Of a stretch of DNA of 64,000 nucleotides, positions 17,881 through 60,466 are shown one piece after another. Position numbers and translations under genes: made by a program. The stretch comes from Callorhinchus milii (taxonomy: Eukaryota), in the NCBI RefSeq assembly GCF_018977255.1, contig NW_024704752.1, positions 8,804,001 through 8,868,000 on the forward strand, written 5' to 3'. Position 1 is the first letter of the stretch, and each line of letters begins with the position of its first letter. A model generated the notes under the pieces. It saw only the letters and a list, made by a program, of their open reading frames with translations, had not been told where the DNA came from and ran no database searches.

Positions 17881-20874
17881 ATGAAGCTGCTTGGAGTGTT
17901 GGCCGTGTGCACTGTGCTGCTTATGCCTTGTGTTATGTCCCAGATACACGAAGCGATTCCCTGTGATTCCCAGGAGGTGGTGGCTCTGGCAGATCTGGCT
18001 GTCAACCACATCAATGAAGTTGAAAAGCAAGGATACAAATTCAGCCTGGACAGGATCGAAAACGTCCAGCAGTTGAAAAAGGTTAGTAAAAATTAAAACA
18101 TTTCTATCCCTCAGCTCTTCTTCCAGACCAATCTTAATAACAATAATAATCCTTCCATTTGATACAACGCCTTATCAAGCCTTTGTGATGTCTCAAAGCG
18201 CTTCACAGAATATATTGTAAAGTGAATTGACTGTATATCTTGCGAACTTTTGATATTGGTTATATTGATAATTTTTTTTAAAAAGCCAGATTGATGGATC
18301 AATAGGTTTGGAATAATTTGGTTGAATCTAACACACTGTAAAAACATGTCAGTCTTGAGGTTTTGATTGCACTGTGACCTCCTTGCCTCAATAATACTGC
18401 GAGAGAGAGAGAGTGCTTCTCCACAGGGACTCCACACTCCCTGTTACCCCGTTTCCCCACTATTTGCTCACGAAAGTACTGGCATTAACCCGTTCGATTT
18501 CCCCCTCAAGTAATGAATGTGCTGTCCTATGATGAGGTAATTTCATGAGCCTGCATAATGGGCCTTGCTTCTGCATCTCGCTTCTATCATTGAAAAAAAG
18601 CACCGAGTTCTGTAATGCATTTTGACATTCTGATCCTGAGAATGATCTTGCATTGAGTCCCAAGTAACCACTGCAAAATACAATCACTAGACTTTGCAGT
18701 AATTCATATGAAGCGCTTCGAGGCGTCCTCCCAGGAAAGGCGCTAGGTCAAATGCAGGGAATAAGATTTCTTTGAACTATTTCCTTTCAGGATGGTGGAG
18801 AAAACGTCTACTATATAGAAATTGATGTCCGTGAGACCAAGTGCCATATTCTGGACCCCAGGCCTCTCAGTGACTGTAAAATCCGTTCCTTCTTGGACAC
18901 CGTGAGTCTTATTACCTTCTCTCTCAACAATTCTTGTATTCCAGAATTCCCGTTAATATGTTGTCCAGAATTACTACTAAGTTAGGTTAGATTGCACAAA
19001 CGATAATCTTTGTGGTTATCGTTTGTGCAGTGTAACCTAACTGTTGTGGCCTTTGCACTGCATTGGTCAGCCCTAATCTAAGTTATTCTGCACATGTGCA
19101 ATTTATTTACTGTGACACTGAAAGTACTAATATTAAAACAATAACTTACCCAATATCAGGACAGTGTTACTGCTATAATATTAACCCAACCTCACTGGAG
19201 TCAAATAAAAAGCTCATCTTGAAGTAAAATTATACTTTTTAAAGTTATACATTGACCCATGACCCCACCATCCTCTTTTTCCTTCTATTTTGTCTTCATT
19301 ATTTTTCCTTTTTTAGGGGTTATTTTTCCTCTCACTGAGGTTCTCCAGGAATTTTCTTCTCTCTCTTCCATTTGACTCCTTTTTCTGATACTGCCATTAT
19401 TCACATTATCCATGGCGGAGAATTATAGCACATTATTTAACTTACTCAAGGTTACTACCTCAACCTTACTGGCTGGAATATAAGTGTCAGAATAGCTTGA
19501 ATGCTCCACTGCGTACAAAGCGATAAAGCCACCTTGGCTTGTCATCTTGTAACATAGTACACGTATTACGTATTTGTGACCTGGATTTTATATTCATTCC
19601 AGTTGAGAGGACAGAAGAAAGGCAAAGTTCCTCTGGGCCGCTCGAATGGGTTGCATAGATCTCTAGCATGTTTTGTGGGCAGATTCAAGCTTCCAAATCC
19701 GTTCCCTAAATCGCTTCTGACAGGATGATTTGATCTTCTGAAGTCAGTGGATGGTTAAACCTCTCATCTATATTGCCGTTCTGGCAGCAAATAGCTCTCG
19801 AAATAAGAGTTTCTATTTTAAATGCTGGGAAGGAAGAACAGCCGGAACATTTCTAATACAGTGCCATTCAGAAGTGATACAATGATGTATTGTGCTATTT
19901 GCTGCTTGGCAAACTAGATAAGATTTGCCAACTCATGGGATCAAATCCCCTCTAATTGTGGCTATAAGACTACTATCTGAATTGGTTTGGGGCCAGCCTC
20001 AAGTGAGAGTGGGCTCACAGCACAATATTTCCCTCCATTTGGCAATCTACTCAGAGGAACCACAGGATGAAATCAAAATATCCTATTGTTGCAATGCAGG
20101 GCTCTCTTCTGAGGTTTGTTTTGACGGAATAGAAAGGACGTTGTTCTAGACTAAACCGTGTTCCATTTGCTCTGTGAATGCTTGACGCTTTTGAATGGGC
20201 CTCTAAAATGGCAACATACTCCATTTCCCAGCACCAAAATCTCCACCCAAAAAAACTGATAAAGGTGACTTTGATTTGGACACAGATCATTAATCCTTTG
20301 CAGAGTGTATTTCTTTGTGCAGCTAACACATTCATCACACAAGGGCATCAATGAAAGGACTTAGTGTATTCAACATACTGACTATCCTTTGGATGCATGT
20401 CAAACCCAATCAAGTAACTCAAGGTTCTTCTTTCTCTCATTCTCATATTAGAAAGTCGAAGGAGATTGTAAGGTAATTGTAGTGACCAAGGCTGGAGCTC
20501 CAAGTTCCGTGGATGGTTATAGGTGTGAATTATCTCCAGGTATGTTCATTTTCTGCTTTGAACAACACTATATGGAGTCCTATAGCTCAGTGGTTAGAGC
20601 ACTCGCCTTGCAAGCGAGACACCTGGGCTCAATTCCAGGCAGGGCGAAACCTTGGGCAAGTTTCCTTACTCCACACAGAGCCTAATAATAATCCCTCCAA
20701 AAATAAAAAATAAATTGGTCATTTTCAATCCACGACTGTTTGTGGGACACTGCTTTGCGCAATTGGCTGCTGCATTTCGCCCACAAATATACGGTCAATT
20801 CACTTTACAGCATATTCTGTGAAGCGCTTTGAGACCTCTAGAAGACGTGAAAAAGTGCTATATCAAATGCAAGG

Positions 20875-20912
<38 letters not shown>

Positions 20913-23841
20913 CACAGCTTAGGCTAAAGGCTCAATGCCACTTTTAGTGATAGTCGTCATATTGGCTCAGTATCATTTGTTTAAGCTGAGAAACTTCGGT
21001 AAAGGAACAAGCACATACAAAGACAAGAAAGGGCACTGCCAAGGTTTAGTAGTATAGAAAAGAACTCTTTATATCTGTCAGTCTTCCCTTCCTTGCACAA
21101 TCATAGCTTTATAAACTCCAGTCTAATTTCACCAAAGCTGTTTTACTACTACTTTAGTCAACACGTACCTCTTTTGCTCCTCACAGATAGTATAGTCCAG
21201 TATTCTCCTCTTCTTCCAGGTACTATCATTGTGTTAAATTATAGATTCAGTGAAAAGAAATTAAAAGTAAAAATGTGCAGGAGATTGAATCAGATACTGA
21301 GAGAGCAAGATAGGTTAATGTTCTGGGTGTGACTCTGACTCTTTATCAGAATCATATCGTCTAGCAGTCCTTATACAGCAGGCCAAGCTCTGGTGGTTTC
21401 AAATAGTTGCAGGGAGTTGTATGGAATTTTAGATTAAACACTACTCTTTCACCTGAGGGACATGAATTCAAATCCCAAAAATGATAAAAAAAAGAGTCCA
21501 GTGTGAAATGTGTTTGGGACAGTCCCTGCAGTTGAGAGTAGGGTGGAAAGTGGGATTAGTTATCTCAGGAGATACCAGGGTTTGAACTTGGAACCTCGAG
21601 TCAGTTGCGCAGTAGGTTTACTGACTGAGCCATTGAAGGAGTCTAATGGTTTTATTAATGTTTGCATGCACTGTTGTGTTACAGATTCAGCTGAAGATGT
21701 TATCGAGAAATGTCCTAACTGTCCGACTCTATTACTTCCAAACGACACTGGAGTCCTATACGCTGTGAATGTCTCATTGCACAAATTTAACCATGTGAGC
21801 AATCACATGCACAAGTTTCAACTTCGTGATATAACACGAGCTTCTGGCAAGGTACATCTCTTCATTCCTAGATCGCACCTGAAGACCTTCCTCTTCGACC
21901 ATGCCACCAGTCACCTCCGCTCTCTCCCTGGCTCTCCGCAAGCTACGCTATTGTTAAGTGCTCAGAGATGCTATCCCATGTGAAGGGCGCTAAATAAATC
22001 GTTCTTGTTCATAAATTATTTTCACTCTGTCAAAGATTCTGAGGATGTTTTTGAGCAGGAAAAGGCCATCAGGCCAACAAGCTTTATTTTTTTTTATCTG
22101 AACCCCCATCTATCAGCCTTCTAACCATATTATCATTCTATTCACTCTCTTGAAATGCATCTAATTGCCTCTTGAACCCACAATTCTGTCACTGAGGTAA
22201 GGCATAAAATCAGATACTTCAGTGGTTACAACAATATTTAATTTGATTCTGTTTCAGGGAGTTGGGAGTCCAGTGATGGTGGAGTTCAGTATCCAGGAGA
22301 CTCCATGTAGGAAAGCCTCACCTCTATGTTCCCTGATTGCCTTGATTTCTCCAGTGAGTATTGTAAACACAGTATCCATAGAAAAAATAATGGAGTGAGT
22401 TGCAAATTGTAATCTGATTGAGATTCAGATAGTTTATATATAGATTAATGGATTCCTGGGAATGAGTTAAAGACAGGAATCCAATCAAGTGGTTCAGATG
22501 GTCAATATATAGAATAATGGATTGCTGGGCGTGAGTTAAAGGGATCTGGTAGCTAGTCACATGATTCAGATGGTCAAAGTATAGAATAATAAATCACTAG
22601 TAGAGATTGGAATCTAGTTAAAGGGTTTAGAAAGCTTTGTGAGGCTAGGGGTGACTGGAACCCTCTCTCCTGCAGGGAGGGGGTAACTTGTGCTGGGATA
22701 AAGTTCCTCAATTGGCCAGTTTCACTGTGAGACTCGGCAGCAAGTGATGTTGGTTGGGGTGAGGGGGGGCGGTGGTTGTCGATACAGATAGAACAAGAAT
22801 GGCGGTTGGGAACACACCACCCAAAACTGAAAACGTATGATATCTCCTAGTTCTTTTACCTCTCTTCTCTCGTTATGTAGCAAAACGGTTTCTGTGCAGC
22901 GACTGTCACTCCAGCTGGTGCTACTGCCCCTGAAATAGTGGATGTGACTTGTGAGTTATACTCAACCAAGGTAAGTGATGTAGCATGGGACCATTAGTTA
23001 TCAAGTGGAGTCCTATTGTGGTACAGCTAATATTTCTCTTACCTCAGCCTCTAATCTCTCTCTCCATCATAATATTCCTTCTCTTTACTTTACTGATATT
23101 CGTGCTCCTCTGAATATAACGCTTTTTCTTCCCATATTTCAAATAATACCATATTCTGCCTATTCTTTCTCCTGCACATTTACTGCACTGAAATTCTGAC
23201 TTACTGACCCTTCACCAACTGCAACTCATTCTTCCCCAGAACCTCAAGACCGTGGAATTCTTCACTACTCACGTTCTTAATAATAACAATAATCCTTGCA
23301 TTTGATGCAGTGCCTTATCACGTCATTGAGACATCTCAAAGCGCTTCATACTATATCGTAGAGTGAATTGACAGTATATTTCCTTTCCTGCTACAGTTTG
23401 CAAGCTTTCCTACTTGCGCACGTCTTCACCTACACACTATATGTTTGATTTATCTAACCTCTCTTATGTTAATCTTGAACCACGGTAATTTTGAATTACA
23501 ATGTGCTTATGTTTTGAATATTGCAGGTTGCCCCCGACAGTAGTACAGCACCACTGGAAGGTGAGAGTGGCACTGTGGCATCACCAGAGGCCGCCACCGT
23601 AGCAGTTGTTGAAAATAATCCCACGGCAGCATCAGAAGTTGCTATTTCTCCAGGAATAATGATTCCTCCTAAACGCAAGCGAGCAGTTCAGGAATCCTCT
23701 GAATCCTCTGAAGAACTGTTGATTGGCACTGGTCAAGCAGGAGCTGGCTCTGAAGTACTACTCAAACTTAGCAGATTCCCTGATCTCCCCGCGCATCTTA
23801 CATCCTGCCCAGGAGTGCGCAGGCACCCCGAGCATCTGTGA
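17881..23841 (+). CDS. AHSG: Fetuin-A / alpha-2-HS-glycoprotein-like, 7 coding exons, 355 aa (gene 1)
   Basis: Exons 17881-18081, 18791-18901, 20452-20539, 21685-21851, 22258-22353, 22881-22970, 23527-23841; all AG/GT bounded, joined frame open (1068 nt). Signal peptide, IPCDS, YYIEIDVRETKCHILDPRPLSDC (human FEIEIDTLETTCHVLDPTPVARC), VEGDC, DSAEDVIEKCPNCP, C-terminal CPGVRRH (human CPGRIRH). AATAAA at 24018 and 24035. Confidence 0.9.
20574..20908 (+). mobile_element. tRNA-derived SINE subfamily A, full length
   Basis: GGAGTCCTATAGCTCAGTGGTTAGAGC (A box)...CTCAATTCC (B-box-like), Deu-like core, long (ATT)n tail; inserted 35 bp after gene 1 exon 3. Confidence 0.9.
21870..22010 (+). mobile_element. 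L2 LINE 3' end fragment
   Basis: Encodes SHLKTFLFDHA (L2 ORF2 terminus), followed by GTGAAGGGCGCTAAATAAAT tail. Confidence 0.65.
22422..22625. repeat. Degenerate ~70-bp tandem triplication in gene 1 intron 5
   Basis: G(A/G)TTCAGAT..TATAGA.TAAT...AGTTAAAG recurs, with units starting near 22422, 22491 and 22563. Confidence 0.7.
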
Positions 23842-27741: not shown

Positions 27742-30700
27742 ATGAAACTGCTCTCTGTGTTGGTACTTGGCACGCAGATCTTTCACTGCCTTTCTGCAGT
27801 GGCTCAAGGCCAACAGCCCTCCTACAGAGCACTCTCTTGCAACGCTTTGAGGGTAGTGGCTGCAGCAGATCTGGCAGTTGAGCAAATGAATGCTGAGCGA
27901 TCAGGAGGTTACAAGTATATCCTCAACAAGATCGAAAACGCTCAGGAGAAGAGGGGGGTGAGTAGCACTACAACAACAACTTGCATTTATACAGCGCCGT
28001 TCACTTACGATAACATTTCAGAGTACTTCACAGAAGTAGGGTTGGATGCTGAGCTAGGAGCAAGGTGGCCAAAAGCACGGTTGGAGAGGTAGGTTTTAAG
28101 CAACAGGGCATTACTCTGATACTTGTGGAACGTTACGTTATTTGGGGAATCACCACAAGGGAAAGTTACATTCAATTTTGTAACAACTGGACAAACAAGT
28201 TGCAAAACATCAATAAATCAAAGCAGGATCTATAAGCGGTTGCTTTCTGATTAGTGACTGTTGCTTTCACAACAATTCAGCTTTTAGCTCATTGAAACGT
28301 TAGGTGAAGAGGTCCAGTGAAGCATATCACCACTGATAAAAAGAGTGGCAGAGAAATAGAAGTCAAGAAGTTATATGATACCAAGCTTGGCTTTCAAAAG
28401 CTAGTAGTTGCAGGAGGATTTGAAGACTGCAGCAGGTGAAGACTTCTCCAGTTTAATGTTCCATAAAAGAGGAAAGTAAAGCAATATATTACCAGAATAT
28501 GAATTATTGAGCAGAATAGGATGGTCTAAGTCTCTGGGGTGGATCACAGCGCCTTATCACCTCTTCGAGACATCTCAAAGCGCTGCACAGAATATACTGT
28601 AAAGTGAATCTTCCTTTTCCTTTCAGAAAGGCGGGTCATCCTCCTTGTTCTTAGAATTTGAGGTGCTGGAGACTCGGTGCCACTCACTGAATCCCAAACC
28701 TGCATCGGAATGCCAAATCAGGTCGGGCCGTGAAGCTGTAAGTCTCCTCCGTGTCACCTTGCCTGGAAATTCTCACTTTAATACAGCTTAGAATTATTGC
28801 AAACCTATGTCAGTGAAGAGTGCAGCTCAATGCAGACACGTTACTATATGACTAAGTTCACGCTCAAAACAGAGCCACCACAATCAATTGAGTTTTGGGC
28901 TTAGAAATAATATGCTTTTTTATCCACCGATTCTGGGAAGCACAGGAGGGGTACATAACTTACTGCGGGTTAGTTTTTATATAATTGTACAATATCCTGC
29001 TGGTACAAATCTGATCTAACAATTTCCTCACACGTGTATTGAAATGTTCGCTCAATTCCATCTTCATAATAATAATATTACTTACATTTGATATAGGGCC
29101 TTATCACGTCATTGAAACGTTTCAATGCGCTTCATAGAATATAATGTAAAGTGGAGTGACTGTGGGCAAAAAACGGCAGCCAAATGTACACAGCATTTTT
29201 TTAAAAAAAGAGAATATTACACCTGGAAAGCGATCCGCCAATCAACTAACTACCAGATTGCTACTTACTGCTAGGTAAACAGAGGCATGTGGAGTAAGGA
29301 AACTTGATTAGGGTTTCGCCCTCTCCGGGAAACCAACCCAGGTCCTCTGCCTCTCTTATATGTGAATCTGTGTCTCTTATTTCAGAATTCTGGGGACTGC
29401 AAAGTGAAATTGCAGATGAATTCAACAAGAAAGGTTCATGTTCAGAGCTACAGGTGCTTAATCTCCCCAGGTAGGCCAGTATTCTGTATATATAATTAGC
29501 ACAATAGGCAAGAGTTATGATAAAGAACACCAGGAGACTAACTCCCTAGTTTGGTGATGTCAAGACTAGAGCGACTTTCTATGCTTTAAGTGTATTACCT
29601 TATTAAGTGGATTGCCATTCAATCTGCTCCTCTGTCCTCAGCACACGTCTCTCGATTGTAATTCTTTAGTGCATCTCCCACTCTGTTTCTATATATTTTC
29701 TTTCTCCCCACCTCTGATCCTTCAGCGTGGTTTTATACTTTTATTTACAAAACTGTACTTTCTGAATAAGTTTTTTTAATATGCAGTAATATCCTGTTTT
29801 TGTTGTCAAGTGATTGAGGGGGACAAAGAGCTTCGGTCAGGCTATTACTTTTGATGTGTAAAGGCTGAGAGCTCAAATGGCCTCCAACAGAATATACTTT
29901 CTGCGTGTGCTTTTTTCAAGATTCGGATGATATGATTTTAAGAAGATGTCCAGGCTGCCCCTATCGAATACCTTTGAACAACACAGACGCCACACATTCT
30001 GTCATGATCGCATTGCAAAAATATAACAGGAAAAGCAACAGGACAAACTATTTTGCCTTGCATGAAATAACAAAAGCTTCCTCTCAGGTATGTCTTAAAC
30101 TGAACATAAACTTCATAGAAAATAGTTTAACAGAATTTTGTTCCTCTTATTTTCCGACACCTGTGAGCAATTGACCTTACACAGACTCCTTGATGCTCAA
30201 TTCCTAAATGCTTTGAACTGAATGACCCATTCAGATTTCAGATCTGATGCTGTGATTTGTACTATTTTACCTTACCTTAGTTGGATAATGGTAGGAATGT
30301 TACAAGCGAGCTTGATTATGCAAAGCATTATGTGTGATTTTATTTCAGATTGTTGCTGGGAAAAATGTATTTGTTGAATTTGCGATCCAAGAGACTGCAT
30401 GCAGTAAAGCTTCCCAGCGTCCAGACTGTCAGGCAGGGTTGGGAGCATTGAAGTCTACTGTAAGTGTGGAAATTTTGGATCAATGGGAACAATATGAAAG
30501 GGTATGGGAAATTGAGATTGGAGGAGGTAATTCCAGTGGGGTAACTAGCACCAGCACAGGCTCAATGGGTTGATTTTTTGATCCAGTGTTTGCAATTTCT
30601 ATCCAAGATGCAAACTTGCAATATCTTCTTCCCTGACCCACACTGGCTTCGATCAATTGAGGTTATTTTGCACAAAATTGTTCTTATTTAACAGAACATC

Positions 30701-32095
30701 TCAAAAAAACGAGGGTGATCCTTTCACAAATGATACATCAGATTTGGTTACTGAATAGTTCCCAATCAGCATCGCATTCCTACCATGCAATTCCGTGTTT
30801 GTAATGTCTCCATCTATATTAACCAAAGAAACCCACAGAGGCAGCAACTATCATTCAAAGATATTCCGGGTAGAGAGCTATTTTCTTTGCTCTGATTTGA
30901 CCTCTGCCTTTCTTTCTGTCCAGCACACGGGCTTGTGTACCGCCTCTGTCTATATGCCCATTTTTGGGAAAGAGAAGATTGAAGTGAACTGTGAACTCTA
31001 TGAACCGCAGGTAACATATCACTTTTAGACCCAAATGTTTTTAACTTTCAAGAACTATTTCATTGGCAGAACTTGCACCATTGCTTCTCAGAATTTTTTT
31101 TCTGAGCTCCAAATATCATGTTCCACATACTCTTACTTACGTCTCACCTGCTGAAAATAAAACTCATCGCATTCAACAACAACTTGCATTTACATAAGCC
31201 CTTCACGCATGATAGCGGCTCAGAGCGCATTCATTTGTTTACGACCCTCTAGATTCTGGGTTCCCCAAATGGTTTAGTGGTTAAAGGTGCCACCTGCCAT
31301 AGCACTAAAATATCTGGACCAGAAGATCAGAAGAAGATTTGAATGCTGCTTTGTGCTGAATGAGCTGGTCTCGGTTGCGGCAGCAGTTAAGATGTCAAAC
31401 GTGGTGTTAACACAGCGTTGCTTGTCGTTATGCTTGCCCAGTGTCCTTACTGAAATGTTCTTTGAGGAGATAATGAGATTCAGCACTGACACACTCCTCA
31501 GTCGAACAGCCTGCCAACACTGACATAACAAATTAGCCACTTGGAGAACTAACCAGCAGTCGTCAGCACTTTCATGAGAGAGAAAGGAAAGAAAATTGGC
31601 AAAGAGAGACCTTTGAAACCCCTCACTTTGCAGTCTATGTTTCCATATATTACACACGGTATCATAAAACCTCACCTTGGAGCCTTCTAATCACCGCTGG
31701 TGTCCTGCAAACCTAACTCTCATTTTGTTAAAATCCATGAAGATGTTGACATGGTCTTTCTAATACCGTAGGTGGTGGCCAATACAAGGAAGAGTGTGAA
31801 TAAAGGAGGGATCAAGAGAGGTCGTGCTAAAGAAAAGGGACGTGTCTCAAGGAGCAGGCGGCAATCACCTTCACATAAAGGCCAGCCACATGTCAAGAAG
31901 CAGCCAAGTGGCAGAGCTGCAACTACAAGGAGAATTGAATCATCCGAGGAGGTTCAAGGGTCTTTTGGCTTTGTTATCGGTACTGGAGGTACAAATGGGA
32001 ACTCCCAATCTCAAACATTCCCAATACTGCCCCCGCCTCGAACAGCCTGCCCAGGGAGGGCCCGTTACACTAGACCAGGCTTCCAGCCTATCTGA
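27742..32095 (+). CDS. Fetuin-A-like paralog with basic C-terminal region, 7 coding exons, 366 aa (gene 2)
   Basis: Exons 27742-27957, 28627-28737, 29386-29470, 29921-30087, 30349-30459, 30924-31010, 31772-32095; open frame (1101 nt). Signal peptide, two cystatin domains (FEVLETRCHSLNPKPASEC; CPGCP; Q|IVAG), terminal CPGRARY. AATAAA near 32272 and 32293. Confidence 0.88.
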
Positions 32096-38978: not shown

Positions 38979-39312
38979 AATTCATCAATCGACTAACAAC
39001 CGGGTTCCCACTTACTGCTGGGTAATCAGAGTAAGTAAATATTCCCAAAGTTTCACCCTCCCGGAAATTGAACCCAGATCCTCTCGCGTGTGAGGCGAGT
39101 GCTCTAACTACTAATCTACAGGACTCCACACACAGGACAGTATCAACATTCTTCCACCATCACCAGCCAATCAGCTAAGAAGTTGACAGGAGGAGGGGTG
39201 GAGGAGAAATTCCTTGTACGCTAAGAGCAGGCTGACCTGATAAAATGAGCTCCGTCTCTCTCATTTCCTGAGTACGGCTCAAGAAGAAGTGTTAGAAGCA
39301 TTGTTGTGCGAT

Positions 39313-45850: not shown

Positions 45851-45899
45851 AGAACCGTGTTGCATAAGCAAAGTCAAACATTTCATAAAATGTTGATTC
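45851..45899 (+). promoter_or_regulatory. Upstream block conserved between the two kininogen genes (second copy 53571-53619)
   Basis: AGAACCGTGTTGCATAAGCAAAGTCAAACATTTCATAAAATGTTGATTC vs AGAACCATGTTGCACAAGACAAATCAAATATTTCAAAAAGTGTTGATTC, about 70-75 bp before each ATG; contains a C/EBP-like TTGCA(T/C)AA and a forkhead-like CAAA(C/T)A. Confidence 0.55.
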
Positions 45900-45968
45900 G
45901 TCAGGGACACAAAGAGTTTGGTAATCTGATCTCGCTTTCGTGTCAGAGGCTGAATAATCTGACCCAAA

Positions 45969-48900
45969 ATGAAGCTTTTTGTTGTGCTCCTCTTCAGCTC
46001 CCAGCTGTTACACAGCAATGCTCGTTCCGTTTCTGACATTGACAGTGTGGATCCAATCCCTATTGATTGTGATGATCCTGAGCTTCTAAAAGCTGTAGAT
46101 TTCACATTACGTAAATTTAATGGTGAACGTAGAACAACTCATCAATATGCTCTCGATAGAGTTTCTTTTGGTACAGTGCAGGTGAGTTGAAATCTATTAT
46201 TCCATCATACAGAATCTGCGTCTTGGAACGTCCTCCCGACGTGAAAGGCGCTCTATAAATGTAATTTTGTTGTTGTTATTGTTGCATGCACTATTGTTTT
46301 CCTAATATTTTACATGTTGTCACTTTAGTTTAGAAAAAAATAAATTTTCCAATTTTTCAGCTCTTCTGAAAGAACTCTGACTTGTGGTTCGGTTAAAGTT
46401 CCACAGTTTGATGAGAAGATATTGTGTAGCTGATTTGTTCTGATATTTTGGGTTGTGATATTGTTGGGGGGGGAAAGGGAGGAGGTGGAAGAGTACAGTA
46501 ATATTGTCTTTGGATGCGCCACATGGAGCCTTTGTTGTTATTGCATTCTAACCTTTCAGGACAGTGTGCTTAAGTCCCATTTTCCTCACAAGCTCTTTTA
46601 TGTTCTGATGAAACAATATACAAAATTGTTCGAGAATTATTGATAGGTGATAATAATAATAAAGATATTAATAATAATGATCCTTACATTTGGTGTTGAT
46701 GCCCTAAAGCATTTCACAGGATAAACTGTAAAGTGGAGTGAGTGTCTGTTTTTTTGTGGGTGATGATAGAAACTACTAAGCCCGTAACCTTGTAAACTGA
46801 TGCCCCAGCACAGAAGGATGTGGTGTTGGGGAAGGGGAGGGAGGATGTTCACAACCACAGCTCATTTCCCCCCTGCTCGGATCCTGACCCAACTGTCCAG
46901 CACCTTGGGACGTCCTCCCGACGTGAAAGGCGCTCTATAAATGGAATCTTGTTGTTGTTGTTGTTGTTATTGTTGATGTATTTCGTTTCTGAGGTTGAGC
47001 AGATGCCCATGGGGAAGGTCGATGAATTAACCCAAACGCTGCCAAGTCCCTCAATGGGTTATCCTTTATATTTATATTTCTATTTCGTCCACAATACACA
47101 GACAATCCACTTTACAGTATATCTTGTGAAGCGCTTTAAGGTGTGTTGAAGACGTGATAAGCCACTATATCAAATGCAAGGATTATTATATTATTATTAT
47201 CATACATATATTGTCACAGAGTGGTACTGGTACGATTCTGACACCAAATCACCTACTTGTTGAGGGTCCTCTCCTCATCTCCCACTGCCTGGCGTAATAA
47301 GCTGAAACAAACACTAATATTTCAGCAATAAAGCTAAATGTCAGAAGCAGCTTTATTACTGTAACATTAACCGAAAATACTTAATGATAATATTAACAAA
47401 CATTTTTCCTTGTGGACACTTCCACAAATATCCTCAGTCTGCCAGTATAATCAGGATCAGGGCTTTTTATTAACCTTTTAGATCCAATATTACAGCACAG
47501 AAACAAATACTAATATTAAAGTAAACAAGCTATTCAAATGTCAGTAGCAGCTTTGTGAATATTAGAAATACAGTTAAATACATATTGATTAAAATAATAA
47601 TCCTTGTATTTGATATATAGCACCTTATCAAGTCTTTGAGATGTCTCAAAGTGCTTCTCAGAATATACTGTAAGGTAAACTGACTGTATATTTTGTGGGC
47701 GAAATGCAGCAGCCAATTGTGCACAGCAGTGCCCCACAAACAGTCATGGATTGAGTGACCAATTTATTTATTTATTTTTGAAGGAATTATTACCCCCGGA
47801 ACAGTGATCTGCCAATTGACTAACAACTAGGGTCCTAATTACTGCTAGGTAAACAGAGTAAGTAAACTTGCCTAATGTTTTTCCCTGCCCAGGAATCGAA
47901 GCTGGGTCATCTGACTTGCGAGGCGAGTGCTCTAACCAATAATCCAAAGAGTTCCATGGAAAGGAAATAAAAATAGGTTAATTAATTTATTCCTACTTGC
48001 CATGTAATCACCAATTATAATTTCTTCTTTCTTATTCTCCATTGTTTCCCAATCCGATTCTGCTCCACTTTCTCTTTTTGACTCTACTGGTAGATTTGAT
48101 TTCATCTTTCCCACAGAAATATTAAATTCATTGGTGGATGCACGGAGATAGGCATGTGCACAATACGTGTGAACAGTTGAGAGACTAAAATGTGAACAAG
48201 CAGTTTAGTTTCATTTGTTTAGATGGAGAATTGAGATTATTGCTGAACATTGACTAATTCTATTATACACAGAGAAAACGTGGGAGTCGATATTTCATCA
48301 AATTTGATATTCAGGAATCTAACTGCCTTGTGGAAAGTGAGAAAACCTGGACAGAATGCGACCACAGACCTCCTACAGTGGCTGTAAGTTTCTGAAACTT
48401 TCTTCCATTTAAATTGAGAAACCAAGCTGAAGGGTCCAGGTGAATAGTGGAAGAGAACATTAAATCTGTAGATTCGCATCCAATGGCATAGAGAATTTCA
48501 TTGTCATGGAGAATGGACAGGTTCCATTCAGCATGGGCTGTGCTGATGCTTCTCTCTGCTGGGGTTTTATGAGATTGGGAAATTTTGTTATAAGGATATT
48601 ACAAAAAAAATGCTATTTTTTGCCGTAAGTATAAAGTAGGGCCTGTTGGCTCATTTCCCAATGCCTTCTCCTTCTTTATAGAATTTGGCCCTTGATCCTC
48701 AATGGCATAGAAGTGGGGATCTGGGGAATCATGAACCTGAAAAATCTATAGTATAAGATTGCTAAGATTGTTACTGAACCAACTTGGTACAGTTCCCTCC
48801 TATATCCCAGTGTTGTGCTAGTTTTATGGTTGTGACTTTTTCATACAAAGCAAATCAGCAAAAAGAGGTAATCACACAAACAGGGGTTGCTTTCTTACAG

Positions 48901-51900
48901 TTTTTCCCTCCAGTCCTGAAGGTGCTGAATCATGCTAGGTACTATTGGGCAGATGTTAGTCATAATAATAATTATAATAATCCTTGGATTTGACATAGCG
49001 CCTTATCGTGCCTTTGAAACGTCTCAAAGTGCTTCACAGAATATACTGTATTTTTTAGTCTTTCCCCAGTATCTCACGTAAGTGACTGGTCTTCAAGTGT
49101 GAGCCCAGGTAGTAAGATTACCTGTGGGACTTCATAGCTAAGCCACATCCAATCCTCAAATGGCATTCATGCACCTATGTTTTTGCAACCGGGCGTCACT
49201 ACTTGGTTACAAGGAGTGATTTACCTTTCCCTCCCTCGTCAGCAACATTGAGGACATTGTGCTATAGAAATGCAATTTGTGGTTGTCGTCGCACTAATAT
49301 TGCTATTTATTCTCAGAATATTGGTCATTGTGAATCCAGTGTGTACATTCACAGAGCAGGAAGAATTTTAGAAGTGACTATGTACAACTGCACCATCATT
49401 CCAGGTAAGCAACATTGCATTTAGGCCAGCAAGTACATATGGGTTTCCTCCCCACTCGCCCCTTCCGCATTACGCTCATGAGAAATATCCCACAGTTGTC
49501 AAGGAAAAGCTGTCCATATTGTTCATTTGCAGACAAGATGTCATTCTGGATATATAATGCAGTTTTAACATACAGACCTCCAGCACTCTTTTATGGTTCC
49601 GAGATGAGCACATCAAACCATCTCTTGTTTGCAATAAAGAAATATTTGTAACAGTCTTATCTTTAGAAAATGATTTACAAACTAATTGATCGTAGTAACT
49701 AATTGTGTACCAAGCAAACAGGATAGACAGTGTCATGGAAAAAAATCAACCCTTGATGTCAAGAACCTGCACGGACACTGAACCTATCTCACACACAGAG
49801 AATTAACCTTCGACACTTAAATGTTCCTAATGCACAGAAAATGAAGCCTTAAACACCTAACCCAGCTAACACACAGAAAATTAACAATCCAAAACTAAAC
49901 TCAACCAAGACAAAGGAAATTGGCAATGATTATACGCACCAAAAATTACCCGTCACCTGTTTCACACTTTGCAGTGGCTTTACTAACTGAACCACAAGGA
50001 TAGATCTTGGGACAACTTGGTTTGAAGGCCTACCAATGGACAAACTACTACAGTATATCCTGAACAAACATGAAACAACTTAATCATGCCCAATATTATA
50101 CAGTTAATATAGATCTCACACCAAATTCTGTGTATATACAGTACTGCATAACATTTGAAACATACTCGCAACTGTTACTGTATAGGTTATGCATGTCTCA
50201 CACAAAAAACGCATTTGCTATTATATATGTAATGAAACATGAATAGAAATGGTATCACATATGTGATAATTGTGCTTACACATTAATTGCTTGTCACCTT
50301 GCTTCCCAGTTAACGATCCGTGGATTGTTCCCAAAATTGCACCTTGTCTTGGGTGTGCAATTTCTTTACCACACAACAGCTCCAGAGCTAAGGAAACCCT
50401 TGATTATTCTATTAAAAAGTTCAACAGTGACAGCAACTATCCTAATATCTTTGGGTCTGAGGTGATCTTCAAAGTGACTTCGCAGGTTAGATATTCCTTT
50501 GGAAATCTATAAACATTTAACTCATTCTTATACAGTATTTCTGGGGTTAGGAGGTTCTGAACTTAATGACACATCATCATATCTGCCTTTGTGTGATTAT
50601 GGGGAGAAGAAGCGTTAAGAACTTAATAAAGTGTGAAATAAGAAAAAGCCACAAAGCCAGTTTGCTGATACAATGCTATATGTTCGAAGCATCTAGTTTT
50701 ACGCAAATAAACAGAAACAATTATACACTATACCCAAAGTGAAGCCCACTCTAAAATCAAGGTTACTCCCTTCAGTGCTGCATTTATTTTAAATAGGTGG
50801 TGGCTGGATATTTATATACACTGAAGTTTTCTCTGCGGGAAACAGAATGCACCAAAAGTTCCAATGATGTGTGGCAAGATTGCATATTAAAGCCTGATAA
50901 TGCAACAACGGTGAGTATCACAGAAAGTAGCCTCTGCGCCCATCTCTACATGCTGTGCTATTCCCTGTAGTATTGCTTGGTGAAACTCTCCATACATTTA
51001 ACTTCAACACAGCGTGGATACAAGGAGAAAAAAGTGCATGTGATGACATATGTGGGGGCACAGAGAAAGAAGAGTGGAAAGAGGAAAGTACTGAGAAACA
51101 ATGGCTACAGTTACATTGATAAAATAGAGATGAAAATGAATGTAACAGGCAGAGAAGGTGGATCTTGCAATTAGAGGATTATCTACCACAGGACAAGTGT
51201 TTTGTATTGTATTCTGGGCAGGGATGTTAGAAGAGCCTCTGCCAAAATGGGTGAGAACAGAGTGTCTTGACAGTACATTGAGTAATACACAGTAATATAT
51301 TTTTAATCTATCTATGGTTTGTGTCAAGTGTATGTTAACATATCACCAGATTGGTTTGGATGAAGAAGGCCATTTGGCCCATCCAATTATTCTTCAATAA
51401 TATAGACTGGAATAGATTGGCAATTTAATGACTTCCTAACCACAACAACAACATCCTTGTACGAAGCTTGCATAAAGTAGAACTCATTTGCTAACAGCTG
51501 AAACTGTAAGTCTTGTGTATATCTCCTAAAGATAAATGGTACACACTGGGTCAACCCAAACAGTGCACCAATAAAGATGCCAAAAGAATATTGTAGTGTG
51601 ATGTGCTAGTTAAACCAGGTTTTACAGCAAATGAATTGTAAATATTTTTTTCTAATATTTACTCTCCAGCTTTACTGCAACTCAACTGTACTTTTCAGTA
51701 TTCGAGCAAATGAAATAGATACCTTTGTATCCTGCAGCACCGATCCGATTGGATTTCAAGTAATACTCTTAGAATTTGCTACTATATTTTAACAATCTGT
51801 TTAATCACTAATAAATTATATTACGTTAAGGAAAATGTTAAACTCAGTCTTAAAGTTGAAGCCTAATTTCCCCAGTACTTAAAAAAACTCACTGAAAACT

Positions 51901-52602
51901 GGCTGTGAATTAAGATTGTATTTAAGAATTTGCTAACTTCTGGACATTGAAATGCTAAGAAAATACAGTAAAGTTAGACTCAGGTGGAATTCCTCCTCCT
52001 AGGTTAGTTGTAATGCTCATCTCTCTACTCCTAACATTGCTTTTCTACTTCACTAATCATTTTGTGACCGATTGCACCTATTTTTGCTCGATAGTCCCTT
52101 GCCCATTCTACAACTGTTTGCTTTGAGATTTGATTTATAATTTAATTTGTCTAACAGAATTTTAAATGGGATAAACTTGGGAATAAAATAAAATGTTTTC
52201 CTCTTACTCTGTTTCAAGATGGAAGGATTCAGAAGCCAACCGACTGAGACCATTGGGATTTTGGCTCAGCAACGACAAAGACATAGGCAGCATCACTTTT
52301 ACCAACAGCAGGATTCCCATGAACAGCATCTGATAAACAAATCTGAGCAATCAAATCCAGCAGTCATTACAACTTCCGCTCCTCTGGAATTACCCCTTTC
52401 TGCAATAGATCAGCTTGCAGACCTTCTAGGACCAGAACCTCCTGTCAACTGCCCAGGAAAACCATGGAAGCCTTTGAGGCACATAACACCAACCGACCCT
52501 GTAAGTGAAACTGTTCCTCCTCCACTAAACACAGCTGAAGAGGGGGAACAACCCAAATCAGATGGCTTTTTCTTTGATTTTGACTTACTGGCTGGTTTGT
52601 AA
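45969..52602 (+). CDS. KNG1: Kininogen with two cystatin domains, 7 coding exons, 391 aa (gene 5)
   Basis: Exons 45969-46181, 48273-48383, 49317-49404, 50310-50485, 50797-50910, 51670-51759, 52219-52602; open frame (1176 nt). [25 protein letters not shown]|VVAG, His/Gln patch, CPGKPWK and terminal FDLLAGL (human HK CPGRPWK...YYFDLTDGLS). Confidence 0.88.
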
Positions 52603-53692: not shown

Positions 53693-56600
53693 ATGAAGCT
53701 CTTGGCTGTGCTCCTCTTCATCTCCCAGCTGTTATACATTAATGCGCTTTTACCAACTCATATTGTGCCGACAGTACCTCCAATCCCTATTGACTGCGAT
53801 AATTTGGAACTTCAAGTTGCTGTGGATTTCACACTACGTAAATTCAACACTAAGGGTACAACAGGTCATAAATATGGTTTGCACCGAATTACTTATGCTA
53901 CTGAACAGGTGAGCTTTTATATGTTCTATATTTATGAGTATTTTATTATTGCATTAGTTAGAAGTTATTTCTACTTCCATTTTTTCTGCTAAAAATCTTC
54001 TATTTCAAGTTTCTCCTCTCTTCCTCACTTGAAAGTGGAGTTTTGGAGTCCTGTAGCTCAGTGGTTAGAGCACTCGCTTTGCAAGCGAGAGACCTGAGTT
54101 CAATTCCAGGCAGAGGGCGAAACCTTGGTTGGGCAAGTTTTCTTACTCCACACTCCTAATAATAATCCCTCAAAAACCAAAAACAATAATAAATTGGTCA
54201 TTTTCAATCTACGACTGTTTGTGGGACATTGGTGTGCGCAATTGGCTGCTGCGTTCGCCCTCAAATATACAGTCAATTCACTTTACAGTGTGTTCTGTGA
54301 AGCGCTTTGGGACATCCTCCCGATGTGAAAAGCGCTATATCAAATGTAAGGATTATTATTATTATTATTGAAGATTATCACTTCCAATTTCACGCATCTT
54401 ATCTCAGTTCTAACTGGCAATGAATTTACCAGTTGAGCCTCTATGCCATTTATCATGCATTTTCTGTCTATCTTTTATATCTCCTTAACCTGCCATAATT
54501 ATGACAATGTTATTGAATTTCATATGCCTCTATAAGGTGCCCTGAGACCATGCAAGTCAAACCCCTGGCGGAATTCTTTTATCCACAGAGAACAATTGGG
54601 AGTCGATATTTCATAAAATTTGATATCCAGGAATCTGACTGCCTTGTAGGAAGCAAGAAATCCTGGAAAGACTGTGGCTACAGAACCTCTGAAAATACTG
54701 TAGGTACCTGAAACTTTTACTCTGTTTTAAATTGACAAACTGAAGTGCAGGGTCAAGATGTATGGCGGAGGAGAACACTGAATTTGAAAAGTATGGAAGG
54801 AAAGATAAAATAAATCAATAAGTACTGATTAATGATTTTAAGATTGCTGGAGGAAGGAATGACAGCTGATCATGAGTTGTATGAAGTTTTGGATGAACAT
54901 AAAAGGAAAGGATTAATATTCTCAGTAGTGTCAACTGCAATCGTGAAGAGTTGGACATTAGCGGTGATAGGAGGAGGATCTACTTGAATAACACGATAAT
55001 CAGAAAAAGAAATCTACTAAACTTTCGGTTTTCGGTAATTTAGCCAACCTTTTATCCATGCTGACAAATTCCCTCTGATACCACATGCCTTAATATTTTC
55101 AAAAAGTAACTCCGTTGGCACCTTATCAAAAAGCCATTTGAAAATCCATAAACACAATAGCCATAGATTATCCATTATTTCTTAAATAACTCCATTAAAC
55201 CTTCTAAGCAAGAGTTGATTTTTTACATATCGATGCTAGTTGTCATTACTGAATCCATGCCTCTCTAAGTGATTATTATTGTGGTTTCAAAACTTTACTG
55301 ACTGATCCATAGAACCTAATGCTCTCTTTCCTTACTTGCCTGTGGTGTCACATTGGTAAAGACGATTAAAGTTGTTTTTTTTAACCATTATAATAAAAAG
55401 GGTGTAACACCACCTAATGACTTTGATATGTTAGCAGTTTCTTATATGTTATTTACAACACTTTTCCTCATAGCCATGTTTATTTTCAGACTAATGGTCA
55501 ATGTGAATCTAATGTGTACATCAACAACCATAGTATTGTGGAAGTGACATCTTACAAATGCACCCTTAAACCTGGTAAGTGGCATTGGACTCGGAATAAC
55601 AAGTACATATTTGCAGTAACAATTGCACAAGGACCAATTTTCCAGTTAGGCAATAGTGCTGGTTATAATTCTTAACCGTTTTCACGATCCACCTTATCTA
55701 GCGTGCTTTCTTCCCTCTGGGTTATCCTATTGCACACGGCACTTCTTGAATGACCTCAGTTTCCAACCTTTGGTCTATGCTACTTTTGAACTCGCTTCCA
55801 AAAGGGCTTAAGAATTGTTCAGGACACAGTTCTGATTTATACTCAATTGCTGTAGAGAAGGACCTAAATTCCACTTGTCTTTTATGGCTCTCAAACACTG
55901 CATTATAACAGGGCTCCATTGTCTCTGAATCTTGACTCTGGGATAAAGGAGTTTTTTTTAAAAAAAAGTACATCTTTATTTCACAAATATTTCACAAATT
56001 AATAGATTATGGGAAGTTAACATTCCCTTCTCAAACAGTCTAGAAAATGCCACAGATCAACTCAGACTGAACTTGATAACTACATCTGGAATTTGACTGT
56101 TGTGTTGACCTCCCTCATTCCTGACTCAACCATTACAGATTGAACTCTTCCTGCCTACATTCAAATAATATGCAGAAAATAAACAGGTGGATGTTAACAA
56201 TTCCATGGAGCTATTTGAAAACAGAATGGAGTTTGTCCTAGTTTCCTAGCCACCAATTTCCAGATATCCGATTTCTATGTTCTATGCTTCACAGAAACTT
56301 TGTGAAGCACTTTATAGGTTCTATACCAAATGCAAATATTATTATTTTATTATTATTATTATTAATTGTCATTAAAGGCTCCAGCATTCACACTGAGTTT
56401 AGGCTGCAGGTCAACTGTTTTGGCAACCCTGATATTGACAATGGCATGATGGCAACCAAAAAGACTTCTTTGAGGTCTTGTGTTCTACTGCAGGTTCCTG
56501 CGCTACCTTAAAAAATAGAAGCCGCATCTCCTGACTGGCAATCTAGGTTATCAATGATGGGATACACGATGTCAGCACGCACATGATATGATGTGATGAC

Positions 56601-59600
56601 AGGGTGCATCCTGTGCAGACGCAGATCTCTGCTGAGGCTCATACAAATTGGTTCTGCAAAGTAATAACTGTAGTGACTGCAAGCTTGACAAACCAAGTCA
56701 GTTGACAATGATAGCAAGCAAGCCTTGGAATTAATCCTCTCGGACTCAACTGAACAAATACATAAAATTGTTGACATGAACCCAAGCAACGTGGATTGGT
56801 TGCTTGGCCACTGAATCTGCACTAAATCCAAGCACCACAATTAATCATCTAACACTAAGACCAAGGGTTGAGGATCAAGTACCATGATTCTGTTTAGTTT
56901 TTGTGAAATGCAAATTACGTTTAGAATCCTCACTGTTTATTTTAGGTGTTAAAAAACAACTTTAATGCAGGGCATTGTATCAACACTCTTTTCATGGACA
57001 ATGTGGGGCAACAAGCAAACAAACTTTACAACGTGGGGGTGGGGAGCTTGGGGGGGAATGATTAAGCAATTACTGATTATGACATAAATGTTAGAATATG
57101 GGATGTTTTTGTACTCCACATTTCTCCCAATCTATGGTGAAGGCACTGACTGATGCCCTGGTATTGATGCACAGACCACACTCCAGTACCTCACCCACAT
57201 ATTCAGTCTTCTAGTATGAGTCTAAACAGAGTGTCAGCAGACTATTCAAGTGTGGCCAGTGTAACAACTAAGCCTTATCCGGCAATGCTGTACACGTAAT
57301 TTCCAGCAGTGATATTGAAATCGTGATCATATGCTTAATCCTACTGTATTGTAGGCTGGTCAGATGGGCTACAAGGATCCTTTCAGTCCTGTAATGATTC
57401 TTTGTTCACACATACCACTATTTCAATTTGCATGCAGTAATGCTTGTTCACTTCTGTTTAATTCAATTGGAGGTGGCATTCTTCAGAGGAGACCGAGGTC
57501 TGTCTGACTGTCCAGGTGCAAGTTAAACATCCTGTGGCACTACTCAAAAAGAGAAGGGAGTTTCTCTCAGTGTCCTAGCCAAATAAAATTGGCCATTCGC
57601 TTCAAGGTCGTTTGTGGGACATTGCTGTGCATAAATTGGCTGCAATATTCACCTGCGAATACAAAGCCATTACACTGCACAATAAGTCCTGAGAAGCGTT
57701 TTGAGACATCCTCCCAAAGTCAAAGAGACTACCACAATGCAAGGATTATAATTATTGTGCACTAATTGCTTATAATTTTGTTTTCCAGTTAGCAATCGAC
57801 AATTTGGACAGAGAGCATCTTTTCCTGGGGGCAAAACACTTGTACCACATGATGACCCTAAGATACAAGAGCTACTTCATTCCTCTGTTACAAAGATCAA
57901 CAATGAGAGTAACTCTTCTCATCTTTTTGTACCTGGCACTATATACACAGCTGTTAAACAGGTCAGACTTTGCTTTACAAATCTGTAGATATTTAAGGTT
58001 GCTCTTAATAACATTGTTCAAATGATTTTGTTCTGATTAACATGTGGATTTGCAGTGCACTCACAGGACAGGCATAGCACAGCCAAATGCTAAGTAAAGT
58101 ACCTGCTATTAACAATTTGCCTCAGCCCAAGTTTCAGAATGGCACTAATGCTGGTGGATTGACCTTTCCACTTTATAGAGTTATCTTGTAACCTCTGAGT
58201 GAAATTGCCACTTTTTACGCTAATTTCAAAGGCCATTTATTTTATTCATCCATCTTGGCTGGATTTAAACCTTGGTCCCAGAGATGAAAGGCAAGTAACC
58301 TCCCCAATGAATCAGCAGTTTACAATTTTGTTTGAAGAAAACTAATCACATTTTTTTGCACTGAACCATTCTCCAGATGAGGCTATCTTCTAACAGGTAA
58401 TTTCAATTTTTTTAAAAAATATATGATTAGGTGGTGTCTGGAATGTTATTCATGATATCGTTTGCTATCCATGAAACTGGATGCACCAAAAATTCCACAA
58501 TCGTACCAAAAGACTGCCCCGTGCAACAGGATAGGCTCAAGACAGTGAGTACCACAGAAACAGCTTTCACATTGCTTTATTGTTGGCCTATTCTCTATTT
58601 ATTGCACAGTGGGCCATCTGTACACAGAACATTTTAGATATTGTAATTATTTTGATATGTGGTTACTGTGTTCTCATGCCGCGAAATTAGCCCTAATGTG
58701 TCCTTGGAGACGAGTCAGCAAGCCTGAATAGTGAACACCCCCTTCTCCCACTCCACAGGGCGGATTGCATAATATTAACTGAGTCATCCGTAGCCAAGCC
58801 AGCCGCAGCCTCACATCAGGAGACCATTGACTTTCCAAAACCAGTATAATACAAACTCCTGAAACCATTTCTAATAGGATCCATAATTACACAAGGTTTT
58901 ACTGCATGGAAAAAGGCCATCCGGCCCATCAAGTCCGTGCCAGTGTTTATGCTTCACACAAGCCCTCACATCTTCTATTCCCCTCATCTGCACTCCTCTA
59001 TTCTCTTCTACCTCATGTTTGCATCAAGGTTTCTCTTAAATACATTGATGCTGTTTCTTCAATCACAGCTTCTGGCAGTGTATTATGTGTTCTCATCACC
59101 CTGTGAATGAAGAAGTTCTCCTAAACCTATTAGATCTTCCATATTGATCTCTTAGGCAGTCCTCAATGTCAGGTCCAGGGTTTCCTGAAGGAGCTGAACT
59201 TGGGGTTAAACATCCAGAAGCTAATGTGCCCCTATCAACCTCTGTAGGCACTAATTTTCTCATTGCCAATCAATTCTGAAACCATTGCAGAACTGTCTTT
59301 CTGTGAATGACGCCTTAAATTTGCTTAAACACAAGCAACTGTACTGTTGAGTAGAAAATTGTATTTTTCTAGTATTAGATGTATTGTATGTCCATAAGAC
59401 CTAATGGGGAAACAATTCTACTTTAATAATGGTCTTTAATAATGGTCACAATGCTATAATAACCTTCAAAATACAGTCACTACGTTTTAAGTATGTCTTA
59501 TGAAGTGCTTTGAGACGTCCTCCTGATGTAAATCACGTGTATTTAGTATAACCTTTTTAAGCAGGGTCCTAATGTGGAGATGTTTTTCATGAAAGCAACA

Positions 59601-60466
59601 TACGATAGACATTTGTCCATTAAACTCCAGATTTTATAGCTGATTTTTACTGCTTCATATTTTTCAAATAATTTCTTCTATTTTTGTAGCTGTATTGTAA
59701 GTCGACTCTGCATAGTAGACCTTGGTTGAATGCTCGAACGCTAAGTGTATCTTGCGGTGATGAAATGATTGACATAATACCCAAAAAACAGGTAATTTAC
59801 TCTTTTTTAAATACTATAATGCTGGATAAATTGTATTATTTAAGAGGGTATTTGCTTGCAAAAAATGCAACTATTTTAATAATGAGCATGCTTAGGGATA
59901 TGACTGAGGCTGTAAAAATCTATTCGTCAGCTAGCCAGGAATACACCAGTCTTCAACTTTGGCAGTGTAAAGTAACTCACCACCGCCATTATTGTTTGCT
60001 GAATCAGCAATATTAGTACCAGGTTTTGGCATTTGGAAACCAAACAATTGAGTGAAGCCAGATGCAACAGTTTTCAGCCTTTTCCAACTATTAAGTAAAA
60101 ATGTATTTCACAAAAATTCTTTTGTCCCTGAAGATATCAAATCAATGGACCAGACATCAAATTTATTCTGTTATAATTGCAGTTACATTGGAAGGCTTGT
60201 GAATATATTTATTCCCCTTTCTTATTTTCAAGGAATTCCAAATATCTCCAGGAATGGGGGCAATCAGGGGTGCTTCTGTTGAGGCTACACCTGGAGAACA
60301 AGTCGTCAAGACGCCTATAGGCACTGATGCGCCTTCACAAATGCCTGATTTACCAAAGCAGCAGCTCAGAGACCTTCCAGAGTCAAAGATCATCAATTGT
60401 CCAGGACAACCTTGGAAGCCCTTGAGGCAACCAAGCCTTGCTATTCCTCCAACCACAAGTTCCTGA
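53693..60466 (+). CDS. Kininogen-like tandem duplicate, 7 coding exons, 344 aa (gene 6)
   Basis: Exons 53693-53908, 54589-54699, 55490-55574, 57789-57961, 58431-58544, 59690-59791, 60233-60466; open frame (1035 nt). Exons 1-3 closely resemble gene 5 ([16 protein letters not shown]). Domain 2 has FPGG, Q|VVSG and RPW; tail has CPGQPWKPLR. Confidence 0.85.
54045..54369 (+). mobile_element. Young tRNA-derived SINE subfamily A, full length, in gene 6 intron 1
   Basis: GGAGTCCTGTAGCTCAGTGGTTAGAGC...GAGTTCAATTCC...GCGCTATATCAAATGTAAGG(ATT)n. Confidence 0.9.
55040..55330 (-). mobile_element. Decayed CR1 reverse-transcriptase fragment
   Basis: Minus strand gives IVFMDFQMAFDKVP (CR1 consensus YLDFQKAFDKVPH), preceded by an SCL-type motif. 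Confidence 0.7.

Follow-up and report, generated by a model that had tools for sequence, protein, structure and literature searches.

Mammalian type-3 cystatin genes lie in the order AHSG-FETUB-HRG-KNG1, and the human genes have a second exon of 111 nt. In snakes, a tandem expansion of fetua has been described in which head-to-tail, seven-exon fetuin-A paralogs with shifted functions stand beside fetub (sections of PMC9907073), and Fig. 9 of that paper includes the elephant shark locus. Here we analysed 64,000 nt of the elephant shark Callorhinchus milii (assembly GCF_018977255.1, contig NW_024704752.1, positions 8,804,001 to 8,868,000; hereafter the window), which carries five intact plus-strand genes of this family (g1, g2, g4, g5 and g6) and, between g2 and g4, a dead remnant at a sixth locus, g3 (Table 1). 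In the reading that we consider probable, the window holds the C. milii version of the type-3 cystatin cluster of jawed vertebrates, the AHSG-like trio is common to sharks and rays with one member dead here, and a duplication likely specific to chimaeras affected the kininogen alone, whose copies would have split ancestral features.

The loci follow each other as three AHSG-like genes (g1, g2 and the dead g3), fetuin-B (g4) and two kininogens (g5 and g6), identities proposed by an initial annotation made from the sequence and in agreement with both our trees and the database names. The intact genes show canonical GT/AG splicing, stop-free open reading frames of 355, 366, 338, 391 and 344 aa (g1, g2, g4, g5 and g6), seven coding exons with phases 0-0-1-0-0-0 (5/5) and, as initially noted, an exon 2 of 111 nt (5/5); the exon plan claimed for six co-oriented loci thus holds for these five and not for g3, where only exons 1, 6 and 7 are left. 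Pfam Cystatin matched two stretches in each of the five proteins, and the signal peptide, the two cystatin domains and the tail with a terminal Cys are those of type-3 cystatins, as judged by the Cys pattern and a fold match to fetuin-B. All five are predicted to be secreted two-cystatin proteins with the tail cysteine acting as a clamp and, by analogy with mammals, would originate in the liver and reside in plasma (parts of PMC6346019). RefSeq already annotates all five genes, and our models differ from the database proteins by 0-3 mismatches, the single exception being a g1 variant with six. A profile of exon 4 retrieved nine matches, seven of which were C. milii proteins. Splice junctions, which the initial annotation had proposed to check against transcripts, were compared with four read runs mapped on 40700-60690 only (the g4-g6 introns); the RNA-like runs come from two studies with no tissue on record, and the contig depth cannot rank the genes by expression. 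Transcript contigs supported 15 of the 16 modelled introns there (14 listed joints, and g6 exon 1-2 through contig pieces), that is 4/4 tested in g4, 5/6 in g5 and 6/6 in g6; the joint between exons 1 and 2 of g5 was missing from the rows shown for these runs. For the genomic-type run X4, none of the supported joints was listed. The g1 and g2 junctions rest on NP_ records, which we take to be based on complementary DNA.

Relatives were collected by a whole-library profile search (1127 proteins at E<=0.001), from which the best 150 of 1127 were retrieved and 20 looked up for names. Trees were built from hand-picked subsets of 57 rows (main), 35 rows (alternative groupings), 18/23 rows (per domain) and 18/29 rows (both domains). 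Left out were proteins >800 aa, rows lacking a first domain, and 16 models that were fragmentary or mis-ordered. In the 57-row tree, the partners of g1 were catshark and zebra shark proteins (support 100/99) and those of g2 were four shark proteins (100/100), and g1 and g2 forced together as sisters were rejected in the approximately unbiased (AU) test (p-AU 2.6e-27, 18/29-row set). Fused gene models of catshark and whale shark contain the g1 ortholog followed directly by the g2 ortholog, both with tails as in C. milii. A profile search of the g3 locus found no trace of exons 2-5, and intact orthologs of g3 were identified in rays (stingray, Hemitrygon and Mobula proteins), matching its exon 1 (tblastn E 4e-12) and its tail (E 1e-6 to 4e-5). 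Since g1 and g2 have shark orthologs and g3 is intact in rays, the AHSG-like trio is older than the chimaera-elasmobranch split. Together with bony AHSG and a further lineage carrying the UniProt label si:ch211-262h13.5, g1, g2 and the ray ortholog of g3 form a fetuin-A superclade (100/99), within which the trees single out none of g1, g2 and g3 as the 1:1 ortholog of bony AHSG. The si:ch211-262h13.5 lineage (99/96 in the 57-row tree; P0198, P0101, P0096 and P0099) has members in coelacanth, gar, teleosts and crocodilians that are misnamed fetuin-B-like or AHSG-like, and the label 'ch211-262h13.5' was not found in any paper of the literature searched.

Both g5 and g6 fell in the KNG clade (100/100) and were sisters (97/92 in the 57-row tree, 96/93 in the 18/29-row tree) inside a chondrichthyan KNG clade (99/95). 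In the KNG alignment, C-x-G-C, QVVAG and the hairpin-2 Trp occur together in all ten non-Callorhinchus rows (nine of the elasmobranch clade and one coelacanth), and WGP[FL] stands at the kinin position in 9/9 elasmobranch rows. The losses of the C. milii pair are complementary: g5 keeps the linker cysteines and the terminal DFDLL and lacks the hairpin-2 Trp, whereas g6 keeps the Gly, QVVSG and PW and lacks both linker cysteines and the terminal motif. QxVxG and PW form the established inhibitory wedge of cystatins, and when the papain-type wedge is counted as N-terminal Gly, QxVxG and hairpin-2 (P)W, domain 2 of g6 has 3/3 parts and that of g5 2/3 (Trp absent). Real motif redistribution was seen only between these two kininogens; the initial claim that motifs are split among the paralogs survives for this pair alone, and mostly in motifs that it did not list (the hairpin-2 Trp, the terminal motif and the kinin segment). 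With its full three-part wedge, g6 is the better candidate for a cysteine-protease (cathepsin) inhibitor, and g5, with a disulfide-locked linker and a domain-6-like end, would serve rather for binding or as a scaffold. A structure model of g5 gave two cystatin folds and a tail of low confidence (mean predicted local distance difference test, pLDDT, 64.9) with fetuin-B as the best match (E 3e-16), and no relative of the last exon was found in the PDB. RefSeq also holds a g5 isoform, XP_007897578.1, that skips exon 6 (51670-51759), which would remove two domain-2 cysteines; exon 6 is present in a transcript contig of run X1.

A 28-segment kinin profile did not recognise a kinin at the start of the last exon of g5 (-0.9 bits; 44/1000 shuffles as high) or g6 (-0.6 bits; 77/1000), and a candidate kinin of g6, PGMG..IR at the right position, was unsupported by this test. 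Neither protein is likely to release a canonical kinin. Parts of one review state that kininogens of cartilaginous and ray-finned fish lack domains 5-6 (PMC8706920), and a section of another paper flags cartilaginous fish as the open test (PMC3835742). Our profile of the post-cysteine tail of high-molecular-weight kininogen (HK) was made from 20 tetrapod-type and coelacanth HK rows, with segments anchored on CPG-x-x-W; P0075 is an HK-type kininogen whose residues 557-588 match the kininogen light-chain peptides 7QOX/7QOT of the PDB. The part of domain 6 that follows the clamp Cys, its C-terminal half, was recognised in g5 (18.7 bits) and g6 (12.3 bits), with 0/500 shuffles as high in each case, as well as in nine elasmobranch rows (6.9-22.3 bits) and in sturgeon (25.5 bits). 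None of 26 fetuin/HRG controls exceeded 2.8 bits, and the anchor motif itself contributes to the scores. The last 14 residues of g5, which include DFDLL, were not significant alone (57/1000 shuffles as high). The prekallikrein/factor XI-binding segment was weakly recognised in g6 (13.6 bits vs controls up to 8.3) and was not significant in g5 (3.1 bits; 83/500 shuffles as high) or in sharks (at most 3.9 bits), and as regards a His-rich domain 5, the tail has 6 His in g5 and 0 in g6. Our reading of these profiles is that the chondrichthyan kininogen tail is HK-type without a clear binding segment, contrary to reviews denying it, a point that may already be in print, as subscription literature lay outside our search.

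The other motifs listed initially are for the most part family signatures and have mostly not been redistributed. All five linkers are present at the expected places and so are the hairpins, although the latter belong to the second cystatin domain, where they span the exon 4/5 junction; the tails are as listed except that the 'basic' one of g2 also has SSEE and the 'His-Gln' one of g5 is net acidic with only its six His. CPDCP also occurs in 10/17 bony AHSG rows and in the si:ch211-262h13.5 lineage, and QVVAG in Xenopus fetuin-B. The SSEE cluster is common to g1, g2, the ray g3 ortholog and 5/6 rows of the si:ch211-262h13.5 lineage, compared with 2/17 bony AHSG and 0/11 FETUB rows, and is for this shared presence likely ancestral.

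By net charge, domain 1 is acidic in g1 (-6), as in bony AHSG (-7 to 0, median -4, n=17), and basic in g2 (+6), so that g1, with four S-x-E in its tail, has the AHSG-type combination of acidic domain 1 and S-x-E and g2 lacks the charge part of it. From these features g1 is likely a calcium-phosphate chaperone, and g2 is probably a basic-tailed phosphoprotein and not a papain inhibitor. A cathepsin-inhibitor role of g2 was not retained, given the poor motif conservation among its orthologs: QxVxG is kept in 2/5 orthologous rows and the linker Gly in 1/5, and the hairpin-2 Trp is absent, making it a poor candidate. The database name of g2, 'fetuin-B-like', was likewise not retained, as the protein sits in the fetuin-A superclade and has neither CPDCP nor QWVxGP, although its forced placement with FETUB was not formally rejected (p-AU 0.078). 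A database copy of g1, P0005, differs at six residues. Three of the changes turn a tail Ser into Phe, two of these three inside the S-x-E cluster, and the differences are probably sequencing errors. The fused catshark model of the g1 and g2 orthologs, P0181, is A0A401NPB6, a protein that mass spectrometry has detected in the skin mucus of catshark (as given in part of PMC10707392).

The fourth locus has the CPDCP trunk of fetuin-B, and its top matches were turtle, bird and crocodile fetuin-B (45%). It falls on the FETUB/HRG side (100/100, 18/29-row tree), and with p-AU values of 0.32 and 0.33 for a grouping of g4 with HRG, the trees neither show nor reject that it is HRG. Its sequence, with CPDCP and QGMFFE, already appears in Table 3 of PMC6400186, sections of which attribute fetuin-B inhibition to the CPDCP trunk and the QWVxGP hairpin and report that replacing this hairpin in mouse fetuin-B raised the Ki substantially. 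QWVxGP, hairpin I of domain 2, is absent from g4, where QGMFFE lacks the Trp, Gly and Pro and the junction is transcript-supported. We predict that g4 is a fetuin-B-type metalloprotease inhibitor that likely ligates the protease zinc via the trunk Asp, and expect the deviant hairpin to weaken, narrow or retarget inhibition, since it is without the residues whose replacement weakened mouse fetuin-B. Trp-less hairpins like that of g4 were also seen in fetuin-B-like proteins of gar, paddlefish and lungfish. No elasmobranch fetuin-B was found among the 13 matches of a word-based g4 search or among the 20 named of 150 representatives, a weak negative that is no evidence of loss; elasmobranchs may have lost or strongly changed fetuin-B. 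Between FETUB and KNG, no HRG gene or remnant was detected in the window (5 of 260 tblastn matches fell outside modelled exons, all with E of at least 0.24), which bears out the initial statement and was expected, as HRG has been published as tetrapod-only, absent from chondrichthyans and ray-finned fish (according to part of PMC2784779).

The initial annotation had gone further and viewed the whole array as an elephant-shark-specific plasma system, in which paralogs newly divide mineral-chaperone, astacin-inhibitor and cathepsin-inhibitor roles. The motifs do differ among paralogs, the sister genes g5 and g6 have lost complementary features, and the 13 matches of the g4 search included no elasmobranch fetuin-B, all of which would suit such a system. 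However, g1 and g2 are not sisters, each has a 1:1 ortholog in sharks whose tail is the same, rays have an intact g3, CPDCP and QVVAG recur in bony AHSG and Xenopus fetuin-B, and the absence of HRG was already published. Lineage specificity is hence unsupported for four of the six loci, and since textbooks assign these three roles to AHSG, FETUB and KNG, the separation of the roles is the ordinary arrangement of the family. For g1, g2 and g4 we largely found plain 1:1 orthologs or already described motifs, the outcome named at the start as speaking against such a system, which on these orthologs appears largely refuted for g1-g3 and is, as a whole, very improbable. The origin of g3 is less clear-cut, and it is possible, if on balance doubtful, that g3 and its ray ortholog are the chondrichthyan member of the separate ancient si:ch211-262h13.5 lineage and not an AHSG duplicate. 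The ray protein tail scored 36 bits on the tail profile of that lineage vs 10 on the AHSG profile, the g3 tail piece scored 14.0 bits (0/500 shuffles as high) and matched a coelacanth protein (9/13 identical, E 0.12), a fused gar model has the lineage gene directly before a fetuin-B-like gene, like g3 before g4, and the grouping survived the AU test (p-AU 0.31 in the 35-row and 0.17 in the 18/29-row set). In contrast, in the best trees the ray protein joins bony AHSG, g1 and g2 (90/83, 57-row) or is part of a chondrichthyan trio (80/88, 18/29-row), and because the g1 and g2 tails also reach 26-29 bits on the lineage profile, the likeness of the g3 tail may be merely ancestral.

For the kininogens, g6 could instead be a duplicate that evolves fast, with selection relaxed or a new function acquired, and g5 the working kininogen with incidental losses. 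This would agree with the domain-2 branch of 1.32 in g6 vs 0.38 in g5 (per-domain tree), with the early end of g6 and its lack of the linker cysteines kept in 10/10 other KNG rows, and with the scores of shark KNG (349 bits for g5 vs 273 for g6). Nevertheless, g6 is intact, spliced in two studies, retains all other cysteines and the Trp lost by g5, and alone among the fish rows has a pre-cysteine segment that outscores every one of 36 controls and 500 shuffles on the HK profile (13.6 bits). We regard this explanation as unlikely. Several points weigh against our own interpretation, according to which the pair split ancestral features after a duplication in the chimaera lineage and the trio is shared. 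Relaxed selection can mimic partition, given the long domain-2 branch of g6; exclusion of an older origin for the KNG pair is no more than borderline (p-AU 0.057 and 0.048 with both domains; 0.087 and 0.29 per domain); holocephalans are represented by C. milii alone; and within the fetuin-A superclade 0/6 alternative groupings were rejected (35-row set). Net charge is a crude proxy, domain 1 of coelacanth KNG being -5 as well, the transcript support is limited to 40700-60690 with g1-g3 outside it, and the roles of all genes are read from motifs. On the interpretation we favour, the AHSG-like trio is shared across chondrichthyans, with g3 dead in C. milii and intact in rays, and after a likely kininogen duplication on the chimaera side the linker disulfide and terminal end would have gone to g5 and the cystatin wedge to g6. 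We put forward, tentatively and as somewhat unlikely, a wider version of this history, in which the HK terminal exon is ancestral to all jawed vertebrates and not a lobe-finned invention, and in which a duplication in the elephant shark was followed by decay of the kinin in each copy, leaving g6 as a cathepsin inhibitor only and g5 as a binding protein of the domain-5/6 type that could partner apple-domain proteases. If this were true, low-molecular-weight kininogen would be a derived splice form, because the chondrichthyan domain-6 C-terminus shares an exon with the kinin position. Part of PMC10499198 cites a report that apple-domain proteases occur in a few cartilaginous fish.

The cluster is flanked by exons of an anosmin-1-like gene upstream and of an SLC19A-type carrier downstream. 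A GC-rich tandem repeat of ~20-nt units (about 10660-12100) lies immediately upstream of the anosmin-like exon, and an assembly gap of 205 N was present at 9919-10123. Copies of a tRNA-like short interspersed element were found at 20556-20700, 38655-38980 and 54045-54360; introns and intergenic DNA also contain many shorter repeat fragments, and repeat depth in the read mapping was high.

Table 1. Genes of the type-3 cystatin cluster and flanking exons in the window (positions counted from its first nucleotide).
Feature	Span	Strand	Exons	Database protein	Remarks
g1, AHSG/fetuin-A-like	17881..23841	+	17881-18081, 18791-18901, 20452-20539, 21685-21851, 22258-22353, 22881-22970, 23527-23841	XP_007897321.2 (exact); NP_001279349.1 (identical over 355 aa)	linker CPNCP; hairpin KGVGS; tail with KRKR and S-x-E cluster
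g2, second AHSG-like	27742..32095	+	27742-27957, 28627-28737, 29386-29470, 29921-30087, 30349-30459, 30924-31010, 31772-32095	NP_001279571.1 (3 mismatches)	linker CPGCP; hairpin QIVAG; basic tail with SSEE
g3, dead third AHSG-like	35110..37400	+	exon 1 35110-35319 (frameshifted), exon 6 36848-36928, exon 7 about 37130-37400 (frameshifted)		
g4, fetuin-B	39313..43848	+	39313-39534, 40075-40185, 40912-40999, 41697-41866, 42260-42373, 42718-42801, 43621-43848	XP_007897454.1 (exact)	trunk CPDCP; deviant hairpin QGMFFE; 75-aa tail
g5, two-cystatin kininogen	45969..52602	+	45969-46181, 48273-48383, 49317-49404, 50310-50485, 50797-50910, 51670-51759, 52219-52602	XP_007897518.1 (exact)	CLGC; QVVAG; no hairpin-2 Trp; short His/Gln stretch; CPGKPWK; terminal DFDLL
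g6, kininogen duplicate	53693..60466	+	53693-53908, 54589-54699, 55490-55574, 57789-57961, 58431-58544, 59690-59791, 60233-60466	XP_007897725.2 (exact)	FPGG (linker cysteines lost); QVVSG; PW kept; degenerate kinin-position segment; CPGQPWK; terminal motif absent
Anosmin-1-like gene, first coding exon	10433-10591	-	10433-10591		Pfam Cys_box E 1.8e-5; GC-rich stretch; upstream neighbour
SLC19A-type folate/thiamine carrier exon	63273-63479	-	63273-63479		Pfam Folate_carrier E 1e-16; downstream neighbour

The gene cluster itself is ordinary and already annotated, and its AHSG-like diversity is pan-chondrichthyan. In the literature outside subscription journals we found no paper describing the whole cluster, and no account of g3 as a gene that is intact in rays, of two kininogens decaying in complementary ways, or of the domain-6-like tails. 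Three S-x-E-bearing fetuin-A-like genes in chondrichthyans, and an unnamed fetuin lineage from coelacanth to crocodilians, bear on the evolution of mineral chaperones in fish with calcified cartilage, and g5 and g6 are a natural pair in which the cystatin motifs required for inhibition can be assayed directly. Like the mammalian type-3 cystatin cluster, that of C. milii is a tandem of co-oriented genes for two cystatin domains and a Cys-clamped tail, with AHSG-like genes followed by FETUB and KNG. It differs in having three AHSG-like loci, one of them dead, no HRG in the window, and two KNG genes with two instead of three cystatin domains and one terminal exon each. The snake fetua expansion is a precedent for paralog diversification at this locus; part of PMC9907073 calls it snake-specific, and the chondrichthyan trio is older and separate. 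Compared to the fetuin-B described in parts of PMC6400186, an astacin and meprin inhibitor with a raised elephant trunk, g4 shares CPDCP and the FETUB/HRG side of the tree and differs in its hairpin QGMFFE. With HK domains 5-6, both g5 and g6 share the post-cysteine part of domain 6, whereas the binding segment is not significant in g5. The single two-domain kininogen of elasmobranchs has the same domains and CPG-x-PW tail as g5 and g6, but unites C-x-G-C, QVVAG, the hairpin Trp and WGP[FL], which in the C. milii pair are split or lost.

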